In this document: positions 2,201 through 12,928 of the stretch, piece by piece
Layout: each line of letters begins with the position of its first letter
Numbering within the stretch: the first letter of the stretch is position 1
Source: PVC group bacterium
Lineage (GTDB): Bacteria; Auribacterota; Erginobacteria; Erginobacterales; Erginobacteraceae
NCBI GenBank assembly: GCA_043804695.1
Contig: JAZDIV010000070.1
Coordinates: forward strand, 1-22,837
Direction: 5' to 3'
DNA: 22,837 nt
Translations under genes and position numbers: made by a program
The notes under the pieces: model-generated
Told to the model about the DNA's origin: nothing
The model's input: the letters and a program-made list of their open reading frames with translations, nothing else
Database searches by the model: none

Positions 2201-2303
2201 AACTTTAGGCACTTCAAACTTTAGGCACTTTAGGCACTTCTTTTGTTCGACGTTGAACGTTCATTTTTTTTGCCACTGCCCACTGCCTACTCCCCACTGC
2301 CTA
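2201..2303. repeat. Mosaic of three short tandem-repeat families
   Basis: (ACTTTAGGC)x3 at 2202-2239, GTTCGAC/GTTGAAC heptamers at ~2245-2263, and (CCACTGC/CTACTGC) heptamers at ~2273-2303. Confidence 0.75.
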
Positions 2304-3569
2304 TTTCAGCAATTCCCGGCAGATTCCCTGATAGCCGAGAAGGATCTCCTTCAGGTCATCAATCGCTACCGATTCGTTAACCGTGTGAGCCTGATCCTCG
2401 TTTCCCGGGCCGTAACCGATGATGGAGGGATTTTTACCGGGGAAGAGCTGGCGATAGGGGATGACCGCGCTCCCGTCGGTGCAGAACGAGTAATGGCCCA
2501 GTTCCGGCCGTTTCCCGAGGGCATTCTCCACCCCCCGGAGAGCCTTTTGCACCAGGTCACTTTCCGGTTCGGTCTTCCAGGCGGGGGCGAACTTATCCTG
2601 CTTGATGGCGACCCCGGTCCAGGTCCGGGCTTCCTCGGAGGCGAACTCGATAGCGGGATCCCGGAATTTAGGGTAGTGATTCCGGCCGTTCATGACCACG
2701 GACTCTATATTGCTCCGGACCAGCCCCAGGACCGACTCCCGGGTGTCCTCCACCAGGGTTCGGATATCGTAGGTTATCTCCACCTGCTTGGGCACGGTGG
2801 AGTTCCCGCCCCGGCCGTCCAGGCCGCCGCCCCCGCCGACCGGGATCTTGATGTCCGTGGGGACGATGTTTCTCTTCCCGAGAACCTGGTCCACATCGGA
2901 CCGGTACCAGCGGTGAAAGGCGTCGATGATGTACGCGCTCTGTTCAATCGCGTTAATCACCTTCCTCCCGGTGGAGGCGTGCTGTGCCTCACCGAAGGAG
3001 GTGATGGCAATCTCCGCCCGGCCCCGCTGGCCGATGCTGATCGCCCCTCCCGATGCCTCCCCGACGATGATGTAATCGGGATGGATCAGCTTCAGGGCCT
3101 CGAGGAAGCAGACTCCCTCGAAGAGTTCCTCCACCACCGTCCCCACCACCACGATCCTGCCGCTGTATCCCCCGGGCTCGCGCAGAACCGCGCCCGCCGC
3201 GGAGAGCATGCAGACCAGGGCGGACTTCATGTCCGCTGCGCCCCGGCCGAAGAGACGTCCATCCCGGATTGCCCCCGTCCAGGGACGGGTCTCCGGCGCC
3301 CAGCTGGCCGGGTCGGCATTGATGGTGTCGGTATGTCCGGTCAGGACAATGACCGGACCCTCGCCCGAGCCGATAATTCCTTCCACGATCAGGTTGCCCA
3401 TCCGGTCGGTCCCGATCCGGTTGAAACCGAGCCGTGAGGCCACCCGCATCAGGTATTTCACCGCCTGTTCTTCCCGGCCGGAGAGGCTGTGGATGCTGAT
3501 CAGCTCCTGGATGGTGCTCAGGACCTTGCCGAAAATGCGTTGGTCGACGATTGCCTTCGATGTGATCAT
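2301..3569 (-). CDS. M20 family metallopeptidase/amidohydrolase (ArgE/DapE group, YgeY-like)
   Basis: Motifs GHTDT, GRGAADMK, VVEELFEG, GE, HAS, YSFCTDGS, GYGPG, AHTVNE. Start re-assigned to ATG 3569 (AAGGA SD), because the upstream ORF extension is translated repeat DNA. Confidence 0.9.
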   Translation of the reverse strand: MITSKAIVDQRIFGKVLSTIQELISIHSLSGREEQAVKYLMRVASRLGFNRIGTDRMGNLIVEGIIGSGEGPVIVLTGHTDTINADPASWAPETRPWTGAIRDGRLFGRGAADMKSALVCMLSAAGAVLREPGGYSGRIVVVGTVVEELFEGVCFLEALKLIHPDYIIVGEASGGAISIGQRGRAEIAITSFGEAQHASTGRKVINAIEQSAYIIDAFHRWYRSDVDQVLGKRNIVPTDIKIPVGGGGGLDGRGGNSTVPKQVEITYDIRTLVEDTRESVLGLVRSNIESVVMNGRNHYPKFRDPAIEFASEEARTWTGVAIKQDKFAPAWKTEPESDLVQKALRGVENALGKRPELGHYSFCTDGSAVIPYRQLFPGKNPSIIGYGPGNEDQAHTVNESVAIDDLKEILLGYQGICRELLK

Positions 3570-3592
3570 CAGATAATTCCTTTTTAAAATAT

Positions 3593-3635
3593 TGATGGAG
3601 TAATGGAGTATTGGAATGATGGAGAGATGGAATGA
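3593..3635 (+). repeat. 8-bp tandem-repeat arm (TRATGGAG)n
   Basis: tgatggag taatggag tattggaa tgatggag agatggaa; same family as 14384-14465. Confidence 0.75.
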
Positions 3636-3764
3636 CACCCGGCCCGGGATACCAACACTCAAGAACAAATTCTGCGAAATAAGAAGTTAAGTATTCATGT
3701 TCTGGATTACTTCTATAGTACGCAACCAGTTTATTCAATGATATTTATTTTAGATGCTCATTCC

Positions 3765-3793
3765 TTGACATCGGGTACTTGAGCCGTTAGTCT
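3765..3793 (+). promoter_or_regulatory. Putative sigma70 promoter for the DHH-like gene
   Basis: TTGACA-17 nt-TAGTCT. Confidence 0.6.
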
Positions 3794-3879
3794 GTTATGA
3801 GAGTCCGCATAATTAAAATATTCAGCTCCGGTGGAGCGGGATATAAATTTGCGCGGCAAATTTATATGGAGGAAATCGT

Positions 3880-6800
3880 ATGAGAAAGAAGATATTCATC
3901 ATCCACGGAAAGGGTGTCAACCGGGGGATCGGTAAAGAGGGCGGCGGCGATCTTGACACCGTCTCTTCCAGCGCTTTCTACATGGTCTGGGCGCAAAACG
4001 CGCTCAAGGAGGAGCTGGGAAGGGACCCGGTTTACGGTCAGGATTTCGAGTTTGATTTTATCAATTACTCCGAGGGAATCAGTCACCTGGCGGTGCACTC
4101 CGGGTGCGATATCTATCTCCCCGATTTCCCGATCGACGCTCTCACCACCCGGATGAAGATGCTGGTCATGGAAGAGGAAGAATCGATCGATCTTATCAAC
4201 CGGTTCACGCGGGAGATCAACGACTTCAAGCTCTGGATCATCCGGAATGCCGACCGGGTCGGCGACGACCTGAAAAACATCTTCAACAACACCTTCAAGC
4301 AGATCCCCAAGGTTCTGGAGCATCAGGAACGGGCCGCCCTTCTCGCCGCCCTCGATATCCTGAAGGTAATCCGCCACGTCACGGCACTCGAAGTCGACTG
4401 TTCGGATGGTGCGGACCAGGAGACTGCAACCTTTTTGGCCGGGTATCTGAAAGGAATGGTCACGAACCTGACCGGGAATAAGCTGAGGGGTTTGAAGGAC
4501 TCTCTGAAGGGACCTTTGAGCAACTCGTCCAAGGAGAACATGGTCGACCGCCTGGTCAAGAAAGGGAACGAGCGCGCGGCCATTATCGCTTTCGATGAGG
4601 CCATCAAGCGGGACATGTCCACCAACGGACGGGTCAACTACACCGATGAGCTCATCATCGTGATGGTGGAGATGGCCGCTTACCTGATCCGGGGGATGAA
4701 ACAGCTTCGCGACCTGCCCTGGGACGACAAGCAGAAAGAGGCCTACGCCCATAATCTCCGGGCGGTCGGGGATGACCTGAAACGGCATCTCCGGGTCATG
4801 ATCGCTCTCTCCGGAGCCCTTCCCTCCTCGGCATCGGAAGATCTGAAAAGGATAATCGCGGGGATCGACGAAGCCCTGAACGGCACCCTGCAGATCATCA
4901 GCGATATCGGGGAGTATGTCCCGCCTCCCGGAGCCCTGGAGAAGGATTACACCATCCGGGTTATGCTGACCGAGGACGCGACCGGGAAGGCGGTTCCCGG
5001 GATCGAGGTCGTGGTCAAACGGCTGGAGGGATCCGGGTCGTTCCTTCTCCCCGACGGATCAACCCGCTCGGAAGATGCCGTCCTCATCCCGACCGACGAA
5101 CGGGGGGCGGTGCTGGTGAAATATATTCCCTCTGCTCCGGACGAGAAGTACCGTTTCTCGATCACCTTTGACGACCTCCAGGAGATATTCCTCCCTTCGG
5201 ATGCCCCGCCCCCCGACACGGAAGTGGCGGAGATGTTCGATGAGGTCGGATCCGAGATATCCGAGGAGGAGTTCGAGGAGAAGGAAGACGCCGCGATCGG
5301 GGACGACCGGGCGATGAAGGTCTCCCTGACAGTTATCGAACGGCAGTTCCGGGAACTCCAGGAAAAGGATGTCCGGTTTGAGAGCATCGACGACCACCAC
5401 CCGTACACGCAGGAGATATTTGATCTCCTGAAAAAACTGGAGAGCGAGGGGATTATCAAGAACATCCAGATCCAGAGCCTCCCCCGGGGACAGGAATTGC
5501 CGATTGAAGAGCAGACCTGCGGTTCGGCCCTGGTCTACAAGGACCGGGTCGAAGGCAAGCCCTGGGACAACCCGGGCCTGGCGGAGCTCAGGCGGATCGC
5601 CCTTCTCCAGGATCTTCACATCGAGATGGAGCCGCTGGCGCTTGAACTCTCCAAGCTGATCGGCTCCAAGTTCAGCAAGGTGGAGATGGCGACCGGTCTG
5701 GCGGAGGGGATCAAGGACTATGAGAGCATGCGCAATATCATGCAGGCGGCCGGCTGGGATAAGAAGGTCGCGGAATATGAAGCCGGGCTGGAAAAGGTTC
5801 TCCCCCGGACCGAGCAGGTACTGGGAAGAATCGACTTTCACAAGCCGGATAGTAAAGACGCCCGGGTTCGGATCATGGCAGCGGTCTCCCCATTCTGTGA
5901 CGCGAAGAAGGGAGAGGTCCAGGTCAATGTCGCCTCGGCCATAGGGTACTGGATGGGGAGGAAGGGATATCCCGCCGACTACATCTTCTACTGTTACGGC
6001 TCCCATCTGATGACGACCCGGAAGCCGAACGAAGAGGAGACGTCTCTCAACCTGAGCACGGTCTGTCAGGCGATGGGGACCAAAGCCGACGGCGGCCACT
6101 CCGGCGCCGCCACCTGCAAGCCGGTCTCCAACCCCAGCTTCCCGACCGCGCGGCTGGATAAGGTGCGGGACACCAACTTCCTGGAATACCTGGAATACCT
6201 GGGCAAGGTGGTTTCGGACTTCTCGGGATTGGTGTACGAAGGCGTCTCCGAGGTACTGGTGCCGGAGTACATCGAGCCGATCGAGAAGGCGCTGAAGCAC
6301 GTGGGGGAGAACACGTTCGAGATCAAGCTCCGGAAAAAGAATGATCCCAACGACACCCTCCGGGTTCTTTTTACCCGGGCACCGAAAGTAAACAAGAAGG
6401 CCGGCGAGGAGAAGCCGTCGTTTCTCCAGGTCATCAACTGCCTGAAACGGACCCAGCAGTTCGATTATCTGATATTTTCACAGGGGATGATGTACCGGGT
6501 AATCCTGGCCAATACCGGCGATCCGGGAAATCGCCTCAACCTCCCGTCCCTGGCCCGGGTCATCGGGTGGAGCGAGGACGGCGGTGGGGAAGTCCTGGCG
6601 GTGGCCGACATCAAGAAAAATCCGAAGGTCAAAAAACGTCTCCGCCAGCTCCTTCACCCGCACATGGTCCTCCTGGCCGATATGCTGGCCGGCTTCATCG
6701 AGGATGGGAGCGATTATCAGGTGGTCTCCGTCCAGCCGGTCTTCTTCGACGGGGCCGTGGACCGGGCCGCGGATGTGTGCCGGCGGATGGACGGCAACAC

Positions 6801-7254
6801 CTACGTCGTCGACCTCACCTCCCCGGGCGGCGGGGGCAAAGCGCCGAAGCTGCGCCTGGTCGCCACGCTCTCTCCTCCAGTTGACCGGAAGAGGGGGGAG
6901 TTCGACCCCTCTCTTCCGCTCACCGCGGCCCATTTCAAGGACCTCAGTCCCAACTACCTGATCTACAGCGAGGAAGAGGTGAGTTTCCCGCGGGAGGACC
7001 AGATCACGGTCCTGATGAGGGTCGATGATCCCTCCGGATCGATCGACTGCTCGCAGGCCATGGCGGCGGTGGCCGGAAAGCAGTTTATCGGGAATGACCG
7101 GGTGGCGGAGTGCATGCCCCGGTTTTTAAAAGGCCCGCCGGTGAACAAGATCGCGTCCAACAACTACCGGGAGTATCTGGAGTTCATCATCCCGAAGATG
7201 GCCGGGGCGGCCGGATATACGGTTGATAGTTTTCGAGCTTTGAGCGAGATATAA
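3880..7254 (+). CDS. Large DHH/DHHA1-superfamily phosphoesterase-like protein (1124 aa) with helical and Ig-like insert and three C-terminal DHHA1-like repeats
   Basis: SD GGAGG. Motif I-like IFIIHG...DLDTVSS (aa 5-30), motif II-like DIYLPDFP (aa 77-84), IDDHH (aa 503-507), CGSALVY, QDL, and DHHA1-type GGHSGAA (aa 738-744). Confidence 0.7.
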   Translation: MRKKIFIIHGKGVNRGIGKEGGGDLDTVSSSAFYMVWAQNALKEELGRDPVYGQDFEFDFINYSEGISHLAVHSGCDIYLPDFPIDALTTRMKMLVMEEEESIDLINRFTREINDFKLWIIRNADRVGDDLKNIFNNTFKQIPKVLEHQERAALLAALDILKVIRHVTALEVDCSDGADQETATFLAGYLKGMVTNLTGNKLRGLKDSLKGPLSNSSKENMVDRLVKKGNERAAIIAFDEAIKRDMSTNGRVNYTDELIIVMVEMAAYLIRGMKQLRDLPWDDKQKEAYAHNLRAVGDDLKRHLRVMIALSGALPSSASEDLKRIIAGIDEALNGTLQIISDIGEYVPPPGALEKDYTIRVMLTEDATGKAVPGIEVVVKRLEGSGSFLLPDGSTRSEDAVLIPTDERGAVLVKYIPSAPDEKYRFSITFDDLQEIFLPSDAPPPDTEVAEMFDEVGSEISEEEFEEKEDAAIGDDRAMKVSLTVIERQFRELQEKDVRFESIDDHHPYTQEIFDLLKKLESEGIIKNIQIQSLPRGQELPIEEQTCGSALVYKDRVEGKPWDNPGLAELRRIALLQDLHIEMEPLALELSKLIGSKFSKVEMATGLAEGIKDYESMRNIMQAAGWDKKVAEYEAGLEKVLPRTEQVLGRIDFHKPDSKDARVRIMAAVSPFCDAKKGEVQVNVASAIGYWMGRKGYPADYIFYCYGSHLMTTRKPNEEETSLNLSTVCQAMGTKADGGHSGAATCKPVSNPSFPTARLDKVRDTNFLEYLEYLGKVVSDFSGLVYEGVSEVLVPEYIEPIEKALKHVGENTFEIKLRKKNDPNDTLRVLFTRAPKVNKKAGEEKPSFLQVINCLKRTQQFDYLIFSQGMMYRVILANTGDPGNRLNLPSLARVIGWSEDGGGEVLAVADIKKNPKVKKRLRQLLHPHMVLLADMLAGFIEDGSDYQVVSVQPVFFDGAVDRAADVCRRMDGNTYVVDLTSPGGGGKAPKLRLVATLSPPVDRKRGEFDPSLPLTAAHFKDLSPNYLIYSEEEVSFPREDQITVLMRVDDPSGSIDCSQAMAAVAGKQFIGNDRVAECMPRFLKGPPVNKIASNNYREYLEFIIPKMAGAAGYTVDSFRALSEI

Positions 7255-7360
7255 ACGGTCATCGGTAAACGGTTGCGCGGCTGGAATCGGTTGCGTGGGA
7301 GGGTTGCGGGTCACACGCAACCGCCCCCCGTTCAACGTTTCGAGTTGCGCAACCGCAACC
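7255..7360. repeat. GGTTGCG / CGCAACC inverted short-repeat cluster
   Basis: Three GGTTGCG copies followed by CGCAACC copies, including gcgcaaccgcaacc. Confidence 0.55.
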
Positions 7361-7419
7361 TTTTAACCCCGAAGTTGCCCGAGGTAAACCGCGGGCAAAC
7401 TTTTGCTGGGAGGGTAGCC

Positions 7420-9255
7420 ATGAGCAAGTTGCGCTCCGGGATGATCTTCTTCGTTTGTATCCTCGCCGGTCTTATTGTTACATCCTGTCAGAAACAGCAA
7501 CCACAATCGGCCCAGCGGTTTCTCCGTCTCGTTCCCGCCGACACCTTTCTCTATCTGGGGTTCAAAGATTGGAAGGTCCTCCGTGACGAGACCGGGACTT
7601 TCGACTTTGTCAAGACCGCCCGGCGCCTTCGGCTCGGCCCCCGGATCGAGAAGCTGCTGGAGCCGGTTTCCGCGGTTCCGCCCGGCGGGCGGGAAACGGG
7701 AAGCCGCCTGCTGGAGCTCCGGGAGAAGGTTAGCCTCTGGGAACTTCTGGGGGGAGAAATCGCTCTCTGCGGTTTCCCCGTCGCCCGTGACGAGCCGCCG
7801 GTTCTGGCCCTTCTCTGCCGTCTCCCGGCGGGCGGGGAGGCGCTTCATACGGATTATTTCCAAGAGATGCTTTCCCGGGCGGGATTTTCCGAAGACGAAC
7901 TGGCCGGGACTGAATCCGTTTATCTGGGAGAAAAGGTCATAACTTTTTCTCTCCCCGGCTTCTTCCCGGGGCGGCTCGCCCGGTGCACGGCAGGGGATAC
8001 CTTTCTCCTCGCCACCGGGGCTGAGGGGGCGAAGCTCATCCTCTCCCGTCTCAAGGGCGCCGGCGGCGGAAAAACACTGGCTGATGCCCCGCCCTTCCGG
8101 GAGCGTTTCCGGGGACTGGATCCGGCCGCGAAAACGGTGGTCTATCTTGACGTCGCCGCTCTGGTTGATCACGCCCGGGGTCCTTTTAAGGATCTACTGG
8201 GCAAACAAAATGTCCTGCCGCCGGAAGCAAAAGAATCGGCCGAGGCACTGTACTGCCTCGGCGGCCTGATGAGGGTTCTCGGCACGGTCAGCGCGGTCGC
8301 CGGGGCCGGAGACCTGGATGAGAACGGCTACCGGGAGACGGTCCGCTACTACCTCGACGAGAAAAACGGGAGCCGGGCGCTGCTCGATCTGGTGAAGATG
8401 CCGCCCCGGGACTGGGACGTGCTCGATTACATCCCGGAGGGGGTTGCCGACCTCTCGGCCGATTACCTCTCGCCGGAAAAGCTTTACCGGCCCCTTCTCG
8501 GCTTCATTGCCGACGACCCGGTCCGCGGCGGTGAGTTTTCGGAAATCTGGAAGAAGCTGCAGGAATCGGCGGGCATCAGCGTGGACGATGATGTTCTCTC
8601 CTGGCTGGGCGACGAGTTCGCCGTCTGCACGGTGTCCCTTTCCCGCTCATTCTTCGAGCCGGGGAGCTTCGCCCTCCTCTGCAAAGTGACCTCGGAGAAG
8701 AAGCTTGGCTCCTTCCTGGACAAACTGCTCTCCCTGGGGATGGGGCGATCCCTGAACATTGTCATTGAAGAGTACGGCGGCAGCACCCTGCGGATACTGT
8801 ACCCCCCGATCCCGCTCTTTCCCTTCAACCCGACCATCGGACGGGTGGGAGAGTACCTGGTGCTGGCCAGCCGGAAAGACGGTTTTACGGATATCGTGGA
8901 TACCTATCTCCGGGACAAGAAAAATATCAGGCAGAACCCGGAGTTTATCCGCATGAGAAAACGGCTGGGCGGGGAGGGAAGCGGGATTCATTTCAGCCGC
9001 CTGGAGGACAAGATTGATTCCCTGATAACGTTTTTCCGGAGTTCCGCCTCCATGGCGGGGATGTTTTTACCGCCTCCTTCCGATCCGGCCGCCGGGACGG
9101 AAGCTTTTCCGGTCCCTGATTCCCGGGAGGTCATTGATCTTATCAACGATCTGACCCGGGTGATGGCGGACCTGAAAGTCTTCCGGTTCTGGGGAGGCAT
9201 CAGCCGTTACCGGGATGGATATATCGAAATAAATGAATTCGTGGAGATTAAATAA
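7420..9255 (+). CDS. Hypothetical lipoprotein, DUF3352-like (611 aa)
   Basis: GGGAGG SD before ATG 7420. Lipobox-like signal MSKLRSGMIFFVCILAGLIVTSC. Two internally repeated halves (LVPADT...LLGGEIAL / YIPEGV...WLGDEFAV, EEYGG, YLVLAS), typical of DUF3352-type proteins. Confidence 0.65.
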   Translation: MSKLRSGMIFFVCILAGLIVTSCQKQQPQSAQRFLRLVPADTFLYLGFKDWKVLRDETGTFDFVKTARRLRLGPRIEKLLEPVSAVPPGGRETGSRLLELREKVSLWELLGGEIALCGFPVARDEPPVLALLCRLPAGGEALHTDYFQEMLSRAGFSEDELAGTESVYLGEKVITFSLPGFFPGRLARCTAGDTFLLATGAEGAKLILSRLKGAGGGKTLADAPPFRERFRGLDPAAKTVVYLDVAALVDHARGPFKDLLGKQNVLPPEAKESAEALYCLGGLMRVLGTVSAVAGAGDLDENGYRETVRYYLDEKNGSRALLDLVKMPPRDWDVLDYIPEGVADLSADYLSPEKLYRPLLGFIADDPVRGGEFSEIWKKLQESAGISVDDDVLSWLGDEFAVCTVSLSRSFFEPGSFALLCKVTSEKKLGSFLDKLLSLGMGRSLNIVIEEYGGSTLRILYPPIPLFPFNPTIGRVGEYLVLASRKDGFTDIVDTYLRDKKNIRQNPEFIRMRKRLGGEGSGIHFSRLEDKIDSLITFFRSSASMAGMFLPPPSDPAAGTEAFPVPDSREVIDLINDLTRVMADLKVFRFWGGISRYRDGYIEINEFVEIK

Positions 9256-10723: not shown

Positions 10724-12928
10724 GTGATCACCACTTTTATTCTCAGCTGGTTTCTGGTAGTGAGTGAACCCGTCACTGTTGTCGCCGAGTTTTCCGGCCG
10801 GTATCCGAGCGAGGAGAACCTGATTGAGGTGATGTTCGACAGCAACCTCCGGGTCAGGCTCCGGTCGGGCCGGCCGGTGGAGCTCGGCCGCCGGGTCTTG
10901 GAGGCGATGGATGATCTGCGGCAGCGTTGCGCCGGCGGCATCTGGTACCGGCTCTGCGACGTCCCCGAGGAGAAGTTGGACGAGCTGCAGGCCCGGGGCG
11001 AGAGAAGAACCGGGCGGCCGGTTTACAACCTCAACAACATCTACCGTCTGGAAATCCCGGAAGGAGAGGACCCTTGGGCCATGAGCCGGGCGCTGGAGAA
11101 AAATTCAGCGGTGATCTGGGCCCGCCCCGTCCCTCTCCGGCCCCCGCCCCCGCTCCCCCCTGATATGGAGGCCGACCAGGGATACCTGGACCCGGCCTCC
11201 TCGACCCCGACCGGGATCAACGCCGGGTACGCCTGGACCCAGCCCGGGGGGGACGGGACCGGTGTCACCGTCTGCGACATCGAGGGAGGCTGGAACTACG
11301 ATCACCACGACCTGACCAAACTCCCCGGCTCGACGGTCAACGCGGGATGGGGCTGTATCTTTGAAAGCGACAGTGTTACCCACGGCACCTCGGTGGTGGG
11401 GGAGTTGGTGGCCGACCGTAACGGCTGGGGGGTAACGGGCATCTGTTACGGCGCTACCCTGATGACCGCCTGCGATTACTACGGCGACCCGGCGGAGTGG
11501 AACCCGGCGGCGGCGATCGCCACGGCGGCCGCCTCCCTTCAGGCGGGAGATATTATCCTCCTGGAAGAGCAGTGGTGGCTCCGGCCTTATACGATTCCGC
11601 ATATGTACGTGCCGATCGAATGGTGCGGGGTCTCCTACCCGGACACCGTGCAGACCGACAATCCCGTCTACGCGGCGATTGCCGGCGCCGTAGCCGCCGG
11701 CATCCACGTCATTGAACCGGCCGGCAACGGCGGCGTCAACCTCGACAACTACACCTGGCTGGCGGACTCGGGAGCGGTGATCGTCGGTGCGGGGGGTGTT
11801 TCCAGCGGATCGTACACAGGCGACAACCTGGAGCGGATCTCCTTCTCGAGCTACGGGTCGCGGGTGAATGTCCAGGGGTGGGGTGAGGAGGTCGTCACCA
11901 CCGGCGGGGGCGATTTCTATTCGGCGGAAGGCGATGACTACTATTACACGGACACGTTCTCGGGGACCTCGAGCGCCTCCCCGGTGGTGGCCGGTGCCGC
12001 CGCCTGCTGCGTGGGGTACTGGATGGGCGGGCTCGGCCAGTCCAAGTCCGGACTTTCGCCGGCGCTTCTGCGGGACGTCCTTGCCGCCACCGGGACCCCC
12101 CAGGTCAACCCGGGGACGGGCAACATCGGGCCCCGTCCCGATCTGCTCAGGGCGTTCCGGGACCTCCGCAACCTGGTCAACCCGGGGGGCGGGATCCGTT
12201 CCGGTGACTACGACGGGGACGGGACCGCGGATATCGCCGTTTTCCGGGCGAGCGCGGGGCTGTGGTCGATCCGGAACGTCTCCCGGACGTACTTCGGGTC
12301 CTCTTCGGACCTTCCCGTTCCTGGTGACTACGACGGCGATGAGACCACCGATATGGGGATCTATCGGCCGTCAACCGGCCTGTGGGCACTGCGGGGGGTG
12401 TCGCGGGTATATTTCGGCACGTCCTCCGATATCACGCTCACCGGGGAATACAACGGGGACGGCCGCTGCGATATCGGTGTTTTCCGGCCCTCTTCGGGCC
12501 TCTGGGCGATCCGGAGGATAAGTCGTGCCTACTTCGGGACCACCGGGGACGCGGTCGTCCCCGGTGACTACAACGGCGACGGGACGGACGATATCGCTGT
12601 CTTCCGTTCCTCCTCCGGGCTCTGGGCAATCCGGTCCCTCAGCCGGATCTACTTCGGTTCTGTCTCCGCCTTCGCCGTTCCCGGCGACTACAACGTCGCC
12701 GGCCGCTTCACGCCCGGGATTTTCCGGCCATCGTCGGGCCTCTGGGCGATCCGGGGAGTGTCCCGCGCCTACTTCGGCGGGTCATCGGACCTGGCGGTCC
12801 CCGCCGATTACAACGGCGACGGCGCAGATGAGATCGGCATCTTCCGTGACACTGCCGGCCTCTGGGCGATCCCCGGCGTGAGCCGGGTCTATTACGGCAG
12901 GAGCGGCGACATCCCCGTCACCCGCTGA
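10724..12928 (+). CDS. Subtilisin-like S8 serine protease with pro-region and C-terminal FG-GAP/VCBS-like repeat domain
   Basis: GAGGTG SD before the GTG start. Catalytic D (CDIEGG), H (THGTSVVG), oxyanion N (PAGNG), S (FSGTSSASP). Six 40-aa GDYDGDG repeats. Confidence 0.9.
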   Translation: MITTFILSWFLVVSEPVTVVAEFSGRYPSEENLIEVMFDSNLRVRLRSGRPVELGRRVLEAMDDLRQRCAGGIWYRLCDVPEEKLDELQARGERRTGRPVYNLNNIYRLEIPEGEDPWAMSRALEKNSAVIWARPVPLRPPPPLPPDMEADQGYLDPASSTPTGINAGYAWTQPGGDGTGVTVCDIEGGWNYDHHDLTKLPGSTVNAGWGCIFESDSVTHGTSVVGELVADRNGWGVTGICYGATLMTACDYYGDPAEWNPAAAIATAAASLQAGDIILLEEQWWLRPYTIPHMYVPIEWCGVSYPDTVQTDNPVYAAIAGAVAAGIHVIEPAGNGGVNLDNYTWLADSGAVIVGAGGVSSGSYTGDNLERISFSSYGSRVNVQGWGEEVVTTGGGDFYSAEGDDYYYTDTFSGTSSASPVVAGAAACCVGYWMGGLGQSKSGLSPALLRDVLAATGTPQVNPGTGNIGPRPDLLRAFRDLRNLVNPGGGIRSGDYDGDGTADIAVFRASAGLWSIRNVSRTYFGSSSDLPVPGDYDGDETTDMGIYRPSTGLWALRGVSRVYFGTSSDITLTGEYNGDGRCDIGVFRPSSGLWAIRRISRAYFGTTGDAVVPGDYNGDGTDDIAVFRSSSGLWAIRSLSRIYFGSVSAFAVPGDYNVAGRFTPGIFRPSSGLWAIRGVSRAYFGGSSDLAVPADYNGDGADEIGIFRDTAGLWAIPGVSRVYYGRSGDIPVTR
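12200..12925 (+). repeat. Six 120-nt (40-aa) coding repeats GDY(D/N)GDG..DI.VFRPSSGLWAIR.VSR.YFG
   Basis: The period is exactly 120 nt (12200, 12320, 12440...) and the array ends DIPVTR-stop. Confidence 0.9.

Follow-up and report, generated by a model that had tools for sequence, protein, structure and literature searches.

The stretch of DNA considered here (hereafter the window) comprises 22,837 nucleotides from a PVC group bacterium of the order Erginobacterales, phylum Auribacterota (GenBank assembly GCA_043804695.1, contig JAZDIV010000070.1, positions 1 to 22,837). Positions 3880..7254 of its plus strand, stop codon included, hold one uninterrupted reading frame of 1124 residues, as given by the list of open reading frames (ORFs) and their translations (protein P0001). 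A GGAGG lies 8 nt 5' of its ATG, and the gene, called here the split-DHH gene, is present as a single copy in the host genome. Its product probably is a cytoplasmic, catalytically competent two-metal (Mn2+/Mg2+-type) DHH/DHHA1 phosphoesterase of a previously undescribed family, which would most likely cleave the ends of a 5'-phosphorylated oligonucleotide or of a single-stranded nucleic acid.

The DHH domain is encoded in two separate segments. Its N-terminal half (residues 1-96; 3880..4167, +) contains strand beta1 with H9 at its end, then a beta hairpin, motif I (D24-x-D26) and motif II (D82), and its C-terminal half, together with the inter-domain helices (residues 477-645; 5308..5814, +), contains motif III (D505-H506-H507), motif IV (D578) and a 20-residue helix (626-645) leading into the first C-terminal repeat; both halves were delimited by conservation, structural model, fold search and register with NrnA. 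Between them lie a segment delimited by conservation and the model (4168..4929, +), an Ig-like (invasin/intimin/macroglobulin-like) beta domain identified in profile and fold searches (residues 351-440; 4930..5199, +), and an acidic disordered linker (residues 441-476; 5200..5307, +) recognised from the model and from its composition, with 16 D/E among 36 residues and a predicted local distance difference test score (pLDDT) <50 for residues 441-474. The C-terminal region is made up of three DHHA1 modules with bounds at about residues 646-792 (R1), 793-955 (R2) and 956-1124 (R3). R1 (5815..6255, +), assigned by conservation, fold search and profile comparison, carries the invariant R714 and D737-G738-G739-H740 and is presumed to be the active substrate-binding module. 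R2 (6256..6744, +) and R3 (6745..7251, +), both assigned by BLASTP, fold and profile comparison, are degenerate: the former has GGG for GGH, an isoelectric point of 9.3 and a conserved KKNxxxKKRLR-type patch, and the latter has GND for GGH.

An earlier first-pass annotation of this DNA had pointed to H9, D24, D26 and D82 at the N-terminus and to a distant D505-H506-H507 as parts of a single DHH domain, and all of these residues proved to be invariant or at least 90% conserved. H9, D24-L-D26-T27 and D82 (in YLPDFPID) all lie within the first 90 residues, and D505-H506-H507 comes 423 residues past D82. In an alignment of 33 family sequences, all of them long forms, D24, D26, D82, D505, H506, H507, D578, R714, D737, G738, G739 and H740 were invariant, as were the wider motifs G22-G23-D24-L25-D26-T27, P81-D82-F83-P84, D505-H506-H507-P508 and D578-L579 and the single residues D77 and D86, and H9 was kept in at least 90% of the sequences. 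The ligand and GGH positions showed the same invariance when 28 short forms, relatives that lack the insertion described below, were aligned separately. Since the ligand set and the GGH are invariant, an active two-metal phosphoesterase is favoured over a non-catalytic scaffold that keeps only the RecJ-like fold, like Cdc45 in the CMG helicase, with the insertion and the extra modules serving as protein-interaction surfaces. Cdc45 has lost the catalytic residues, whereas invariance across phyla and in both subfamilies, as found here, is unexpected for a scaffold. The scaffold explanation, which we regard as very unlikely, draws on the human Cdc45 DHH domain, where, according to the excerpt of PMC4873980 consulted, the insertion combines an acidic, largely disordered stretch with a long helix, resembling the acidic linker and the helices of P0001. 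The precedent is a partial one: the Cdc45 insertion has about 80 residues and no Ig domain.

The register of the motifs was derived by aligning 28 homologs of the host's own 352-residue NrnA-like protein and comparing this alignment with the family by profile-profile hhalign. With the short-form alignment, GDLDT..S fell on PDGDA.GS and DHHP on DHH, the D of DFP paired with that of (V)DC, and the D of (A)H.QDL with that of TDTG. With R1, LNLS..GT.ADGGH.GAAT was placed on VDV..FGG-GGH..AAG (E 4.6e-4, probability 33%), so that DGGH at 737-740 aligns to the NrnA GGGH with Asp in place of the first Gly. For the NrnA-type enzyme of D. radiodurans, the consulted part of PMC11229311 gives H34, D38, D40, D95, H121 and D171 as metal ligands, H122 as the residue that orients the phosphate, and a GGGH motif, which amounts to the pattern H-x3-D-x-D, D, H(H), D plus GGGH. 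By alignment, H9, D24, D26, D82, H506(H507), D578 and the GGH correspond to this ligand set. Judged by sequence, all motifs that define DHH/DHHA1 enzymes (H plus DxD, D, DHH and D, with GGGH in the form DGGH) are present. The register, together with structural alignments spanning both halves, suggests that the N-terminal Asp motifs and the DHH would converge on one two-metal site.

The stretch that separates the two halves, residues 97-476, is a genuine insertion of about 380 residues between motifs II and III, composed of a helical bundle, an invasin-like Ig domain and the acidic disordered linker. In the AlphaFold2 model the helices of the insertion span residues 100-346, the Ig-like beta domain spans about 357-438, and 441-474 is the sole disordered stretch, so that the model and the composition bear out the anatomy put forward by the first-pass annotation. 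Within the family, two short relatives, P0083 and P0082, match residues 20-88 and pass from there directly to 486 onwards. Two family searches retrieved 206 proteins, 115 of which contained, by pattern matching, all of motif I, motif II, DHHP and GGH. The spacing between motif II and DHH was 363-450 residues in 78 of these 115 members and 29-61, nearly always 29, in the other 37; in the NrnA alignment it is about 25. The long-form spacing, set against the canonical 29 of the insert-less relatives, substantiates the earlier claim of a DHH domain split by a large insert. Almost all of the members without an insert between motifs II and III (34 out of 37) have instead a stretch of more than 100 residues that separates the beta1 His from the DxD, and two members, P0092 (452 residues) and P0100 (392 residues), have neither insertion. 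The two alternative inserts never co-occur in one of the 115 members, and no relatedness between them was detectable by hhalign (probability 1.6%), for which reason they are treated as unrelated.

The three C-terminal repeats, also claimed by the first-pass annotation, were recovered at two levels of comparison. BLASTP between the repeats gave E values of 1e-5 (R1/R2), 3e-7 (R1/R3) and 2e-4 (R2/R3), which at the profile level fell to 2.8e-35, 1.5e-26 and 1.4e-29, and by the profile comparison R1, R2 and R3 can unambiguously be called homologous. DGGH was found in R1 of all 33 sequences; GGH was found in R2 of 4 of them (GGG in P0001) and in R3 of none (GND in P0001). When R2-R3 was folded alone from a 19-sequence alignment, a pLDDT of 92.1 was obtained, and a fold search with this model was topped by DHHA1 domains, which agrees with the proposal of one active and two degenerate DHHA1 modules. 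A prediction of R2-R3 self-association scored 0.00; it was run without controls and counts neither way. The number of modules varies among the insert-bearing members (two in 25, three in 48 and four in 3), and all 37 insert-less members have one. The presence of DHHA1 modules also bears on the idea that the protein is an exopolyphosphatase or pyrophosphatase of the family II PPase/PPX1 type. Those enzymes carry DHHA2 instead of DHHA1 and have no GGGH, and this identity is given very little credence.

The fold is that of a DHH domain followed by a DHHA1 domain. AlphaFold2, run with the family alignment, yielded a model with a mean pLDDT of 87.5 and a predicted template modelling score of 0.82, with only residues 441-474 below 50. 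A Foldseek search with the whole model retrieved DHH/DHHA1 enzymes (6mtz, PggH 7d62, PAP phosphatase 8a8k, TM1595, NrnA and RecJ) at E values of 1e-3 to 3e-2 and probabilities of up to 1.0. The aligned range covers about residues 1-785 of P0001 and about 90% of the small enzymes, and the top structural matches are RecJ-type or HAN nucleases. Low-probability Foldseek rows (transporters, Brr2 and some toxins) were treated as chance, and ESM Atlas matches, the best at 0.75 and to viral clusters, fell below the useful range and were disregarded.

On this basis a mechanism can be proposed. The catalytic DHH domain would be assembled from the two separated segments, residues 1-96 and 477-645, which jointly carry the full ligand set (H9, D24, D26, D82, H506/H507 and D578), and R1, through R714 and the GGH at 738-740, would close the substrate cleft as in NrnA and RecJ. 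R2 and R3, which have lost the GGH, would be non-catalytic accessory modules, and the basic R2 and the other accessory domains may serve as a platform that binds or positions the polymer or a partner. The enzyme would act as an exonuclease or nanoRNase that hydrolyses terminal phosphodiester bonds of 5'-phosphorylated oligonucleotides or single-stranded nucleic acids. We lean to such a substrate because RecJ/HAN nucleases are the top structural matches, because R2 is basic, because the short subfamily is linked to ComEC (see below), and because of the enzymes already available to the host, whose genome encodes an NrnA-like enzyme (352 residues), RecJ, a DAC cyclase and a PgpH-type phosphodiesterase. 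With these genes in place the split-DHH protein fills no obvious gap in nanoRNA or cyclic di-AMP (c-di-AMP) turnover, and the idea of a missing c-di-AMP phosphodiesterase was ruled out given the PgpH-type and NrnA-like genes. The location, in turn, is predicted to be cytoplasmic because neither a signal peptide nor a transmembrane segment was found in the protein: hydropathy averaged over 19 residues peaks at 1.56, and the N-terminus MRKKIFIIHGKG does not resemble a signal peptide.

The same active split enzyme could instead act on a small molecule, as a phosphodiesterase or phosphatase of pAp, pApA/pGpG, a cyclic di- or oligonucleotide or another signalling nucleotide, with R2, R3 and the insert in regulatory or ligand-sensing roles. 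This is a possible reading, held only tentatively. In our reading of the consensus lines, R714 of TTR(K) falls at the position of the Arg conserved in the NrnA 'VSxRS' segment, and allosteric sensors are commonly built from degenerate copies of the domain with which an enzyme binds its ligand; R2 and R3, however, lack the GGH that contacts the nucleotide in DHHA1. Of 47 related loci, 10 have a GGDEF cyclase gene within 8 kb, an association that may be due to chance, because such genomes contain many GGDEF genes and few clades account for the 10 loci. In addition, an NrnA-like enzyme and a PgpH-type phosphodiesterase for c-di-AMP are already encoded by the host, and the short subfamily is coupled to ComEC and not to signalling genes.

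This coupling was found in the survey of family loci. Within the insert-less group, 24 of 37 members end in a hydrophobic, transmembrane-like segment followed by a conserved ESN.DF.PQ tail, a feature of P0103-P0128 and similar short forms, and another short group (e.g., P0082) has an N-terminal GYF_2 domain (PF14237) and no transmembrane tail. In four loci from two phyla a ComEC-like gene comes after the short-form gene, lying 12 nt away from it or overlapping it by 1-4 nt: L045 6788-12301 in Spirochaetia, L047 5048-10197 in Victivallales, and L048 1257-6058 and L049 7071-11734 in Kiritimatiellia. In these loci the short form is translationally coupled to a ComEC-like DNA-uptake gene. The coupled ComEC-like proteins contain Competence and DUF4131 domains, and no Pfam Lactamase_B was found in them at E <= 0.01 (two of the proteins scanned) or E <= 0.001 (the other two). 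In L022, the second gene downstream of a long form with two modules encodes a full ComEC with Lactamase_B. DHH is not mentioned in papers on ComEC structure and function, as far as the search listing shows. These data allow a more specific, and in our estimate doubtful, proposal for the family as a modular nucleic-acid-end-processing enzyme at or near the DNA-uptake machinery. The short form, anchored in the membrane at its C-terminus and co-translated with ComEC-like channels without a recognisable metallo-beta-lactamase nuclease domain, would supply or replace the nuclease for incoming DNA, and the long cytoplasmic form would have swapped the anchor for dead DHHA1 modules and an Ig/helical insert that tethers it to a polymer or partner; alternatively, the dead modules might be nucleotide sensors that gate the active site allosterically. 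An M20/M25/M40 peptidase gene adjoins the family gene in 12 loci from two distant clades, lying divergently upstream in the host clade and co-directionally downstream in the other (L025/L027/L032/L034/L035/L039/L044/L046). No functional link is evident, and this gene was rejected as a conserved operon partner of the long form.

The family is rare. A word-indexed search returned 87 relatives, all of them unnamed or 'hypothetical' and none with DHH or DHHA1 among its precomputed Pfam assignments, and an exhaustive profile search of 1.84 billion representatives found 136 proteins at E <= 0.001 and 86 at <= 1e-10; in many of the weaker ones among the 136 the match is confined to the Ig-like part, at profile positions of about 320-450. 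Across 185,579 species genomes, 49 family loci were identified, in Candidatus Euphemobacter, Erginobacter and Tritonobacter (Auribacterota), as well as in Elusimicrobiota, Lindowbacteria, Muiribacteriota, Ignavibacteria, Spirochaetes, Kiritimatiellia and Victivallales. Within the host phylum the family is present in 15 of 79 genomes, including all 13 other genomes of the host order and 1 of 65 outside it. In two close relatives the gene is read in two pieces. In L001 (8001-11373), which holds an 89% identical relative, it is split into ORFs of 1000 and 91 residues, and in a same-genus genome the family profile matches two adjoining pieces (about 1-1018 and 1017-1151). This two-piece reading near the start of R3 could reflect a frameshift, a stop or an assembly error.

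Several results weigh against the assignment of the protein to active, nucleic-acid-processing DHH/DHHA1 enzymes. Pfam yielded neither DHH (PF01368) nor DHHA1 (PF02272) for P0001 at E <= 1, the only row being PDEase_I_N at a chance-level E of 0.15, and seven further diverse members had no Pfam DHH/DHHA1 match at E <= 0.1. NCBIfam, with the curated RecJ and NrnA models included, returned 0 families for P0001, no canonical DHH enzyme appeared among the 1.84 billion representatives in the family profile search, and the 33-sequence family profile found no DHH protein in the PDB, its matches there being confined to the Ig domain of an intimin (E 0.006) and to helical designs. The whole model gave 0 Foldseek matches to the PDB at E <= 0.001, and the hhalign comparison between the short-form and NrnA alignments was statistically weak (probability 4%, E 0.011). 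With regard to the substrate, the basic patch of R2, of the KKN...K.LR type, is present in the host clade and in Elusimicrobiota and is clade-specific, other clades lacking it, rather than family-wide; the long form has no operon partner conserved across phyla in the locus survey; the ComEC link belongs to the short subfamily and not to the long form; and the host's two ComEC-like genes sit on other contigs. Those library results also bear on novelty, as claimed by the first-pass annotation: in addition, PADLOC gave no match for P0001, and phmmer against PDB sequences gave two rows, both with E above 0.3. No paper describing the family was found, as judged by titles and abstract openings, and phrases for tandem, split or degenerate DHH/DHHA1 were not found in the full-text literature search. 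In fold and chemistry the protein falls within a well-known superfamily; the novelty lies in a library-unrecognised family with two alternative large insertions in the DHH domain and one to four DHHA1 modules.

The split-DHH protein differs from each of the known systems closest to it. It has no sequence-level match with the HAN/PF0399 DHH nuclease domain (PDB 5yh1) or with RecJ-type exonucleases (5f55, 2zxo, 8y30 and the archaeal RecJ2 7ykv), and no OB-fold or S1 domain was detected in it. Its C-terminal region consists of DHHA1-like repeats and not of the OB fold that characterises RecJ, its DHH domain is interrupted by 380 residues, and it has three DHHA1 modules instead of one. Structural coverage is near full-length for the NrnA, PAP phosphatase, PggH, DhhP and TM1595 group (284 of 317 residues of 8a8k and 267 of 294 of 7d62), with the motifs in register. 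However, NrnA-type enzymes have 290-350 residues and are recognised by Pfam PF01368/PF02272, as are the host's NrnA-like relatives, whereas the split-DHH protein has 1124 residues and is unrecognised; the spacing from the His to the DxD is 15 residues in the latter and 4 in the former, and DGGH replaces GGGH. Nor does it conform to NanoRNase A, defined by a curated model and a two-domain protein of about 310-350 residues, given its length, its insertion and its extra modules, and the host has a separate NrnA-like gene. The DHHA1-like, non-catalytic C-Ala domain of alanyl-tRNA synthetase differs from the split-DHH repeats in its protein context.

With regard to the surroundings of the gene in the window, a 211-bp intergenic region separates it from a divergent M20-family peptidase gene (2301-3668, minus strand). 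Of the promoter that had been proposed there, the TTGACA hexamer is present in the sequence (3765..3770, +), but the promoter scan called none at that place. A lipoprotein gene had also been proposed downstream. The ORF 3' of the split-DHH ORF probably starts at about 7420 (7420-9255, +), and not at the TTG at 7273, and was found to have an N-terminus, MSKLRSGMIFFVCILAGLIVTSC (…LIVTSC), that resembles a lipobox in our own reading of the sequence. It has a weak DUF3352 match (E 4.5e-6), slightly below the Pfam cut-off, and this lipoprotein-like gene is common only to 8 close relatives of the locus. Between the two genes, positions 7265-7365 form a strongly structured palindrome with six GGTTGCG/CGCAACC words in about 90 nt; the 165-nt intergenic RNA spanning it has a folding energy of -80 kcal/mol (z -4.0), equalled by 0 of 200 shuffles. 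BLAST located 11 more places with this element on six other host contigs (C32, C12, C33, C114, C73 and C74) at 73-86% identity, on both strands on several contigs, and it looks like a dispersed repeat of the repetitive extragenic palindromic (REP) or miniature inverted-repeat transposable element (MITE) type. A search of Rfam over 3600-7500 gave sub-threshold rows only, with no match for the palindromic element. Further downstream, 10724-12928 (+) encodes a 734-residue protein with a subtilase (Peptidase_S8) domain and FG-GAP repeats.

Members of the DHH/DHHA1 class, among them RecJ, NrnA, GdpP, PggH and Cdc45, have central roles in DNA repair, in RNA turnover and in signalling by second messengers, and the plan of their domains is regarded as very stable. 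The split-DHH family widens the range of architectures known for RecJ/NrnA-type enzymes. In this family the DHH domain tolerates large insertions at two mutually exclusive sites, between the His and the DxD or between motifs II and III, and the DHHA1 module may be present in one to four copies, with the catalytic GGH kept by the first copy only. Its members are annotated everywhere as 'hypothetical' because current family libraries fail to recognise them, and a model built from the present alignments would annotate the family in Auribacterota, Elusimicrobiota, Lindowbacteria, Muiribacteriota, Spirochaetota and PVC bacteria. Finally, the operon link between the short form and ComEC provides a concrete lead on function.

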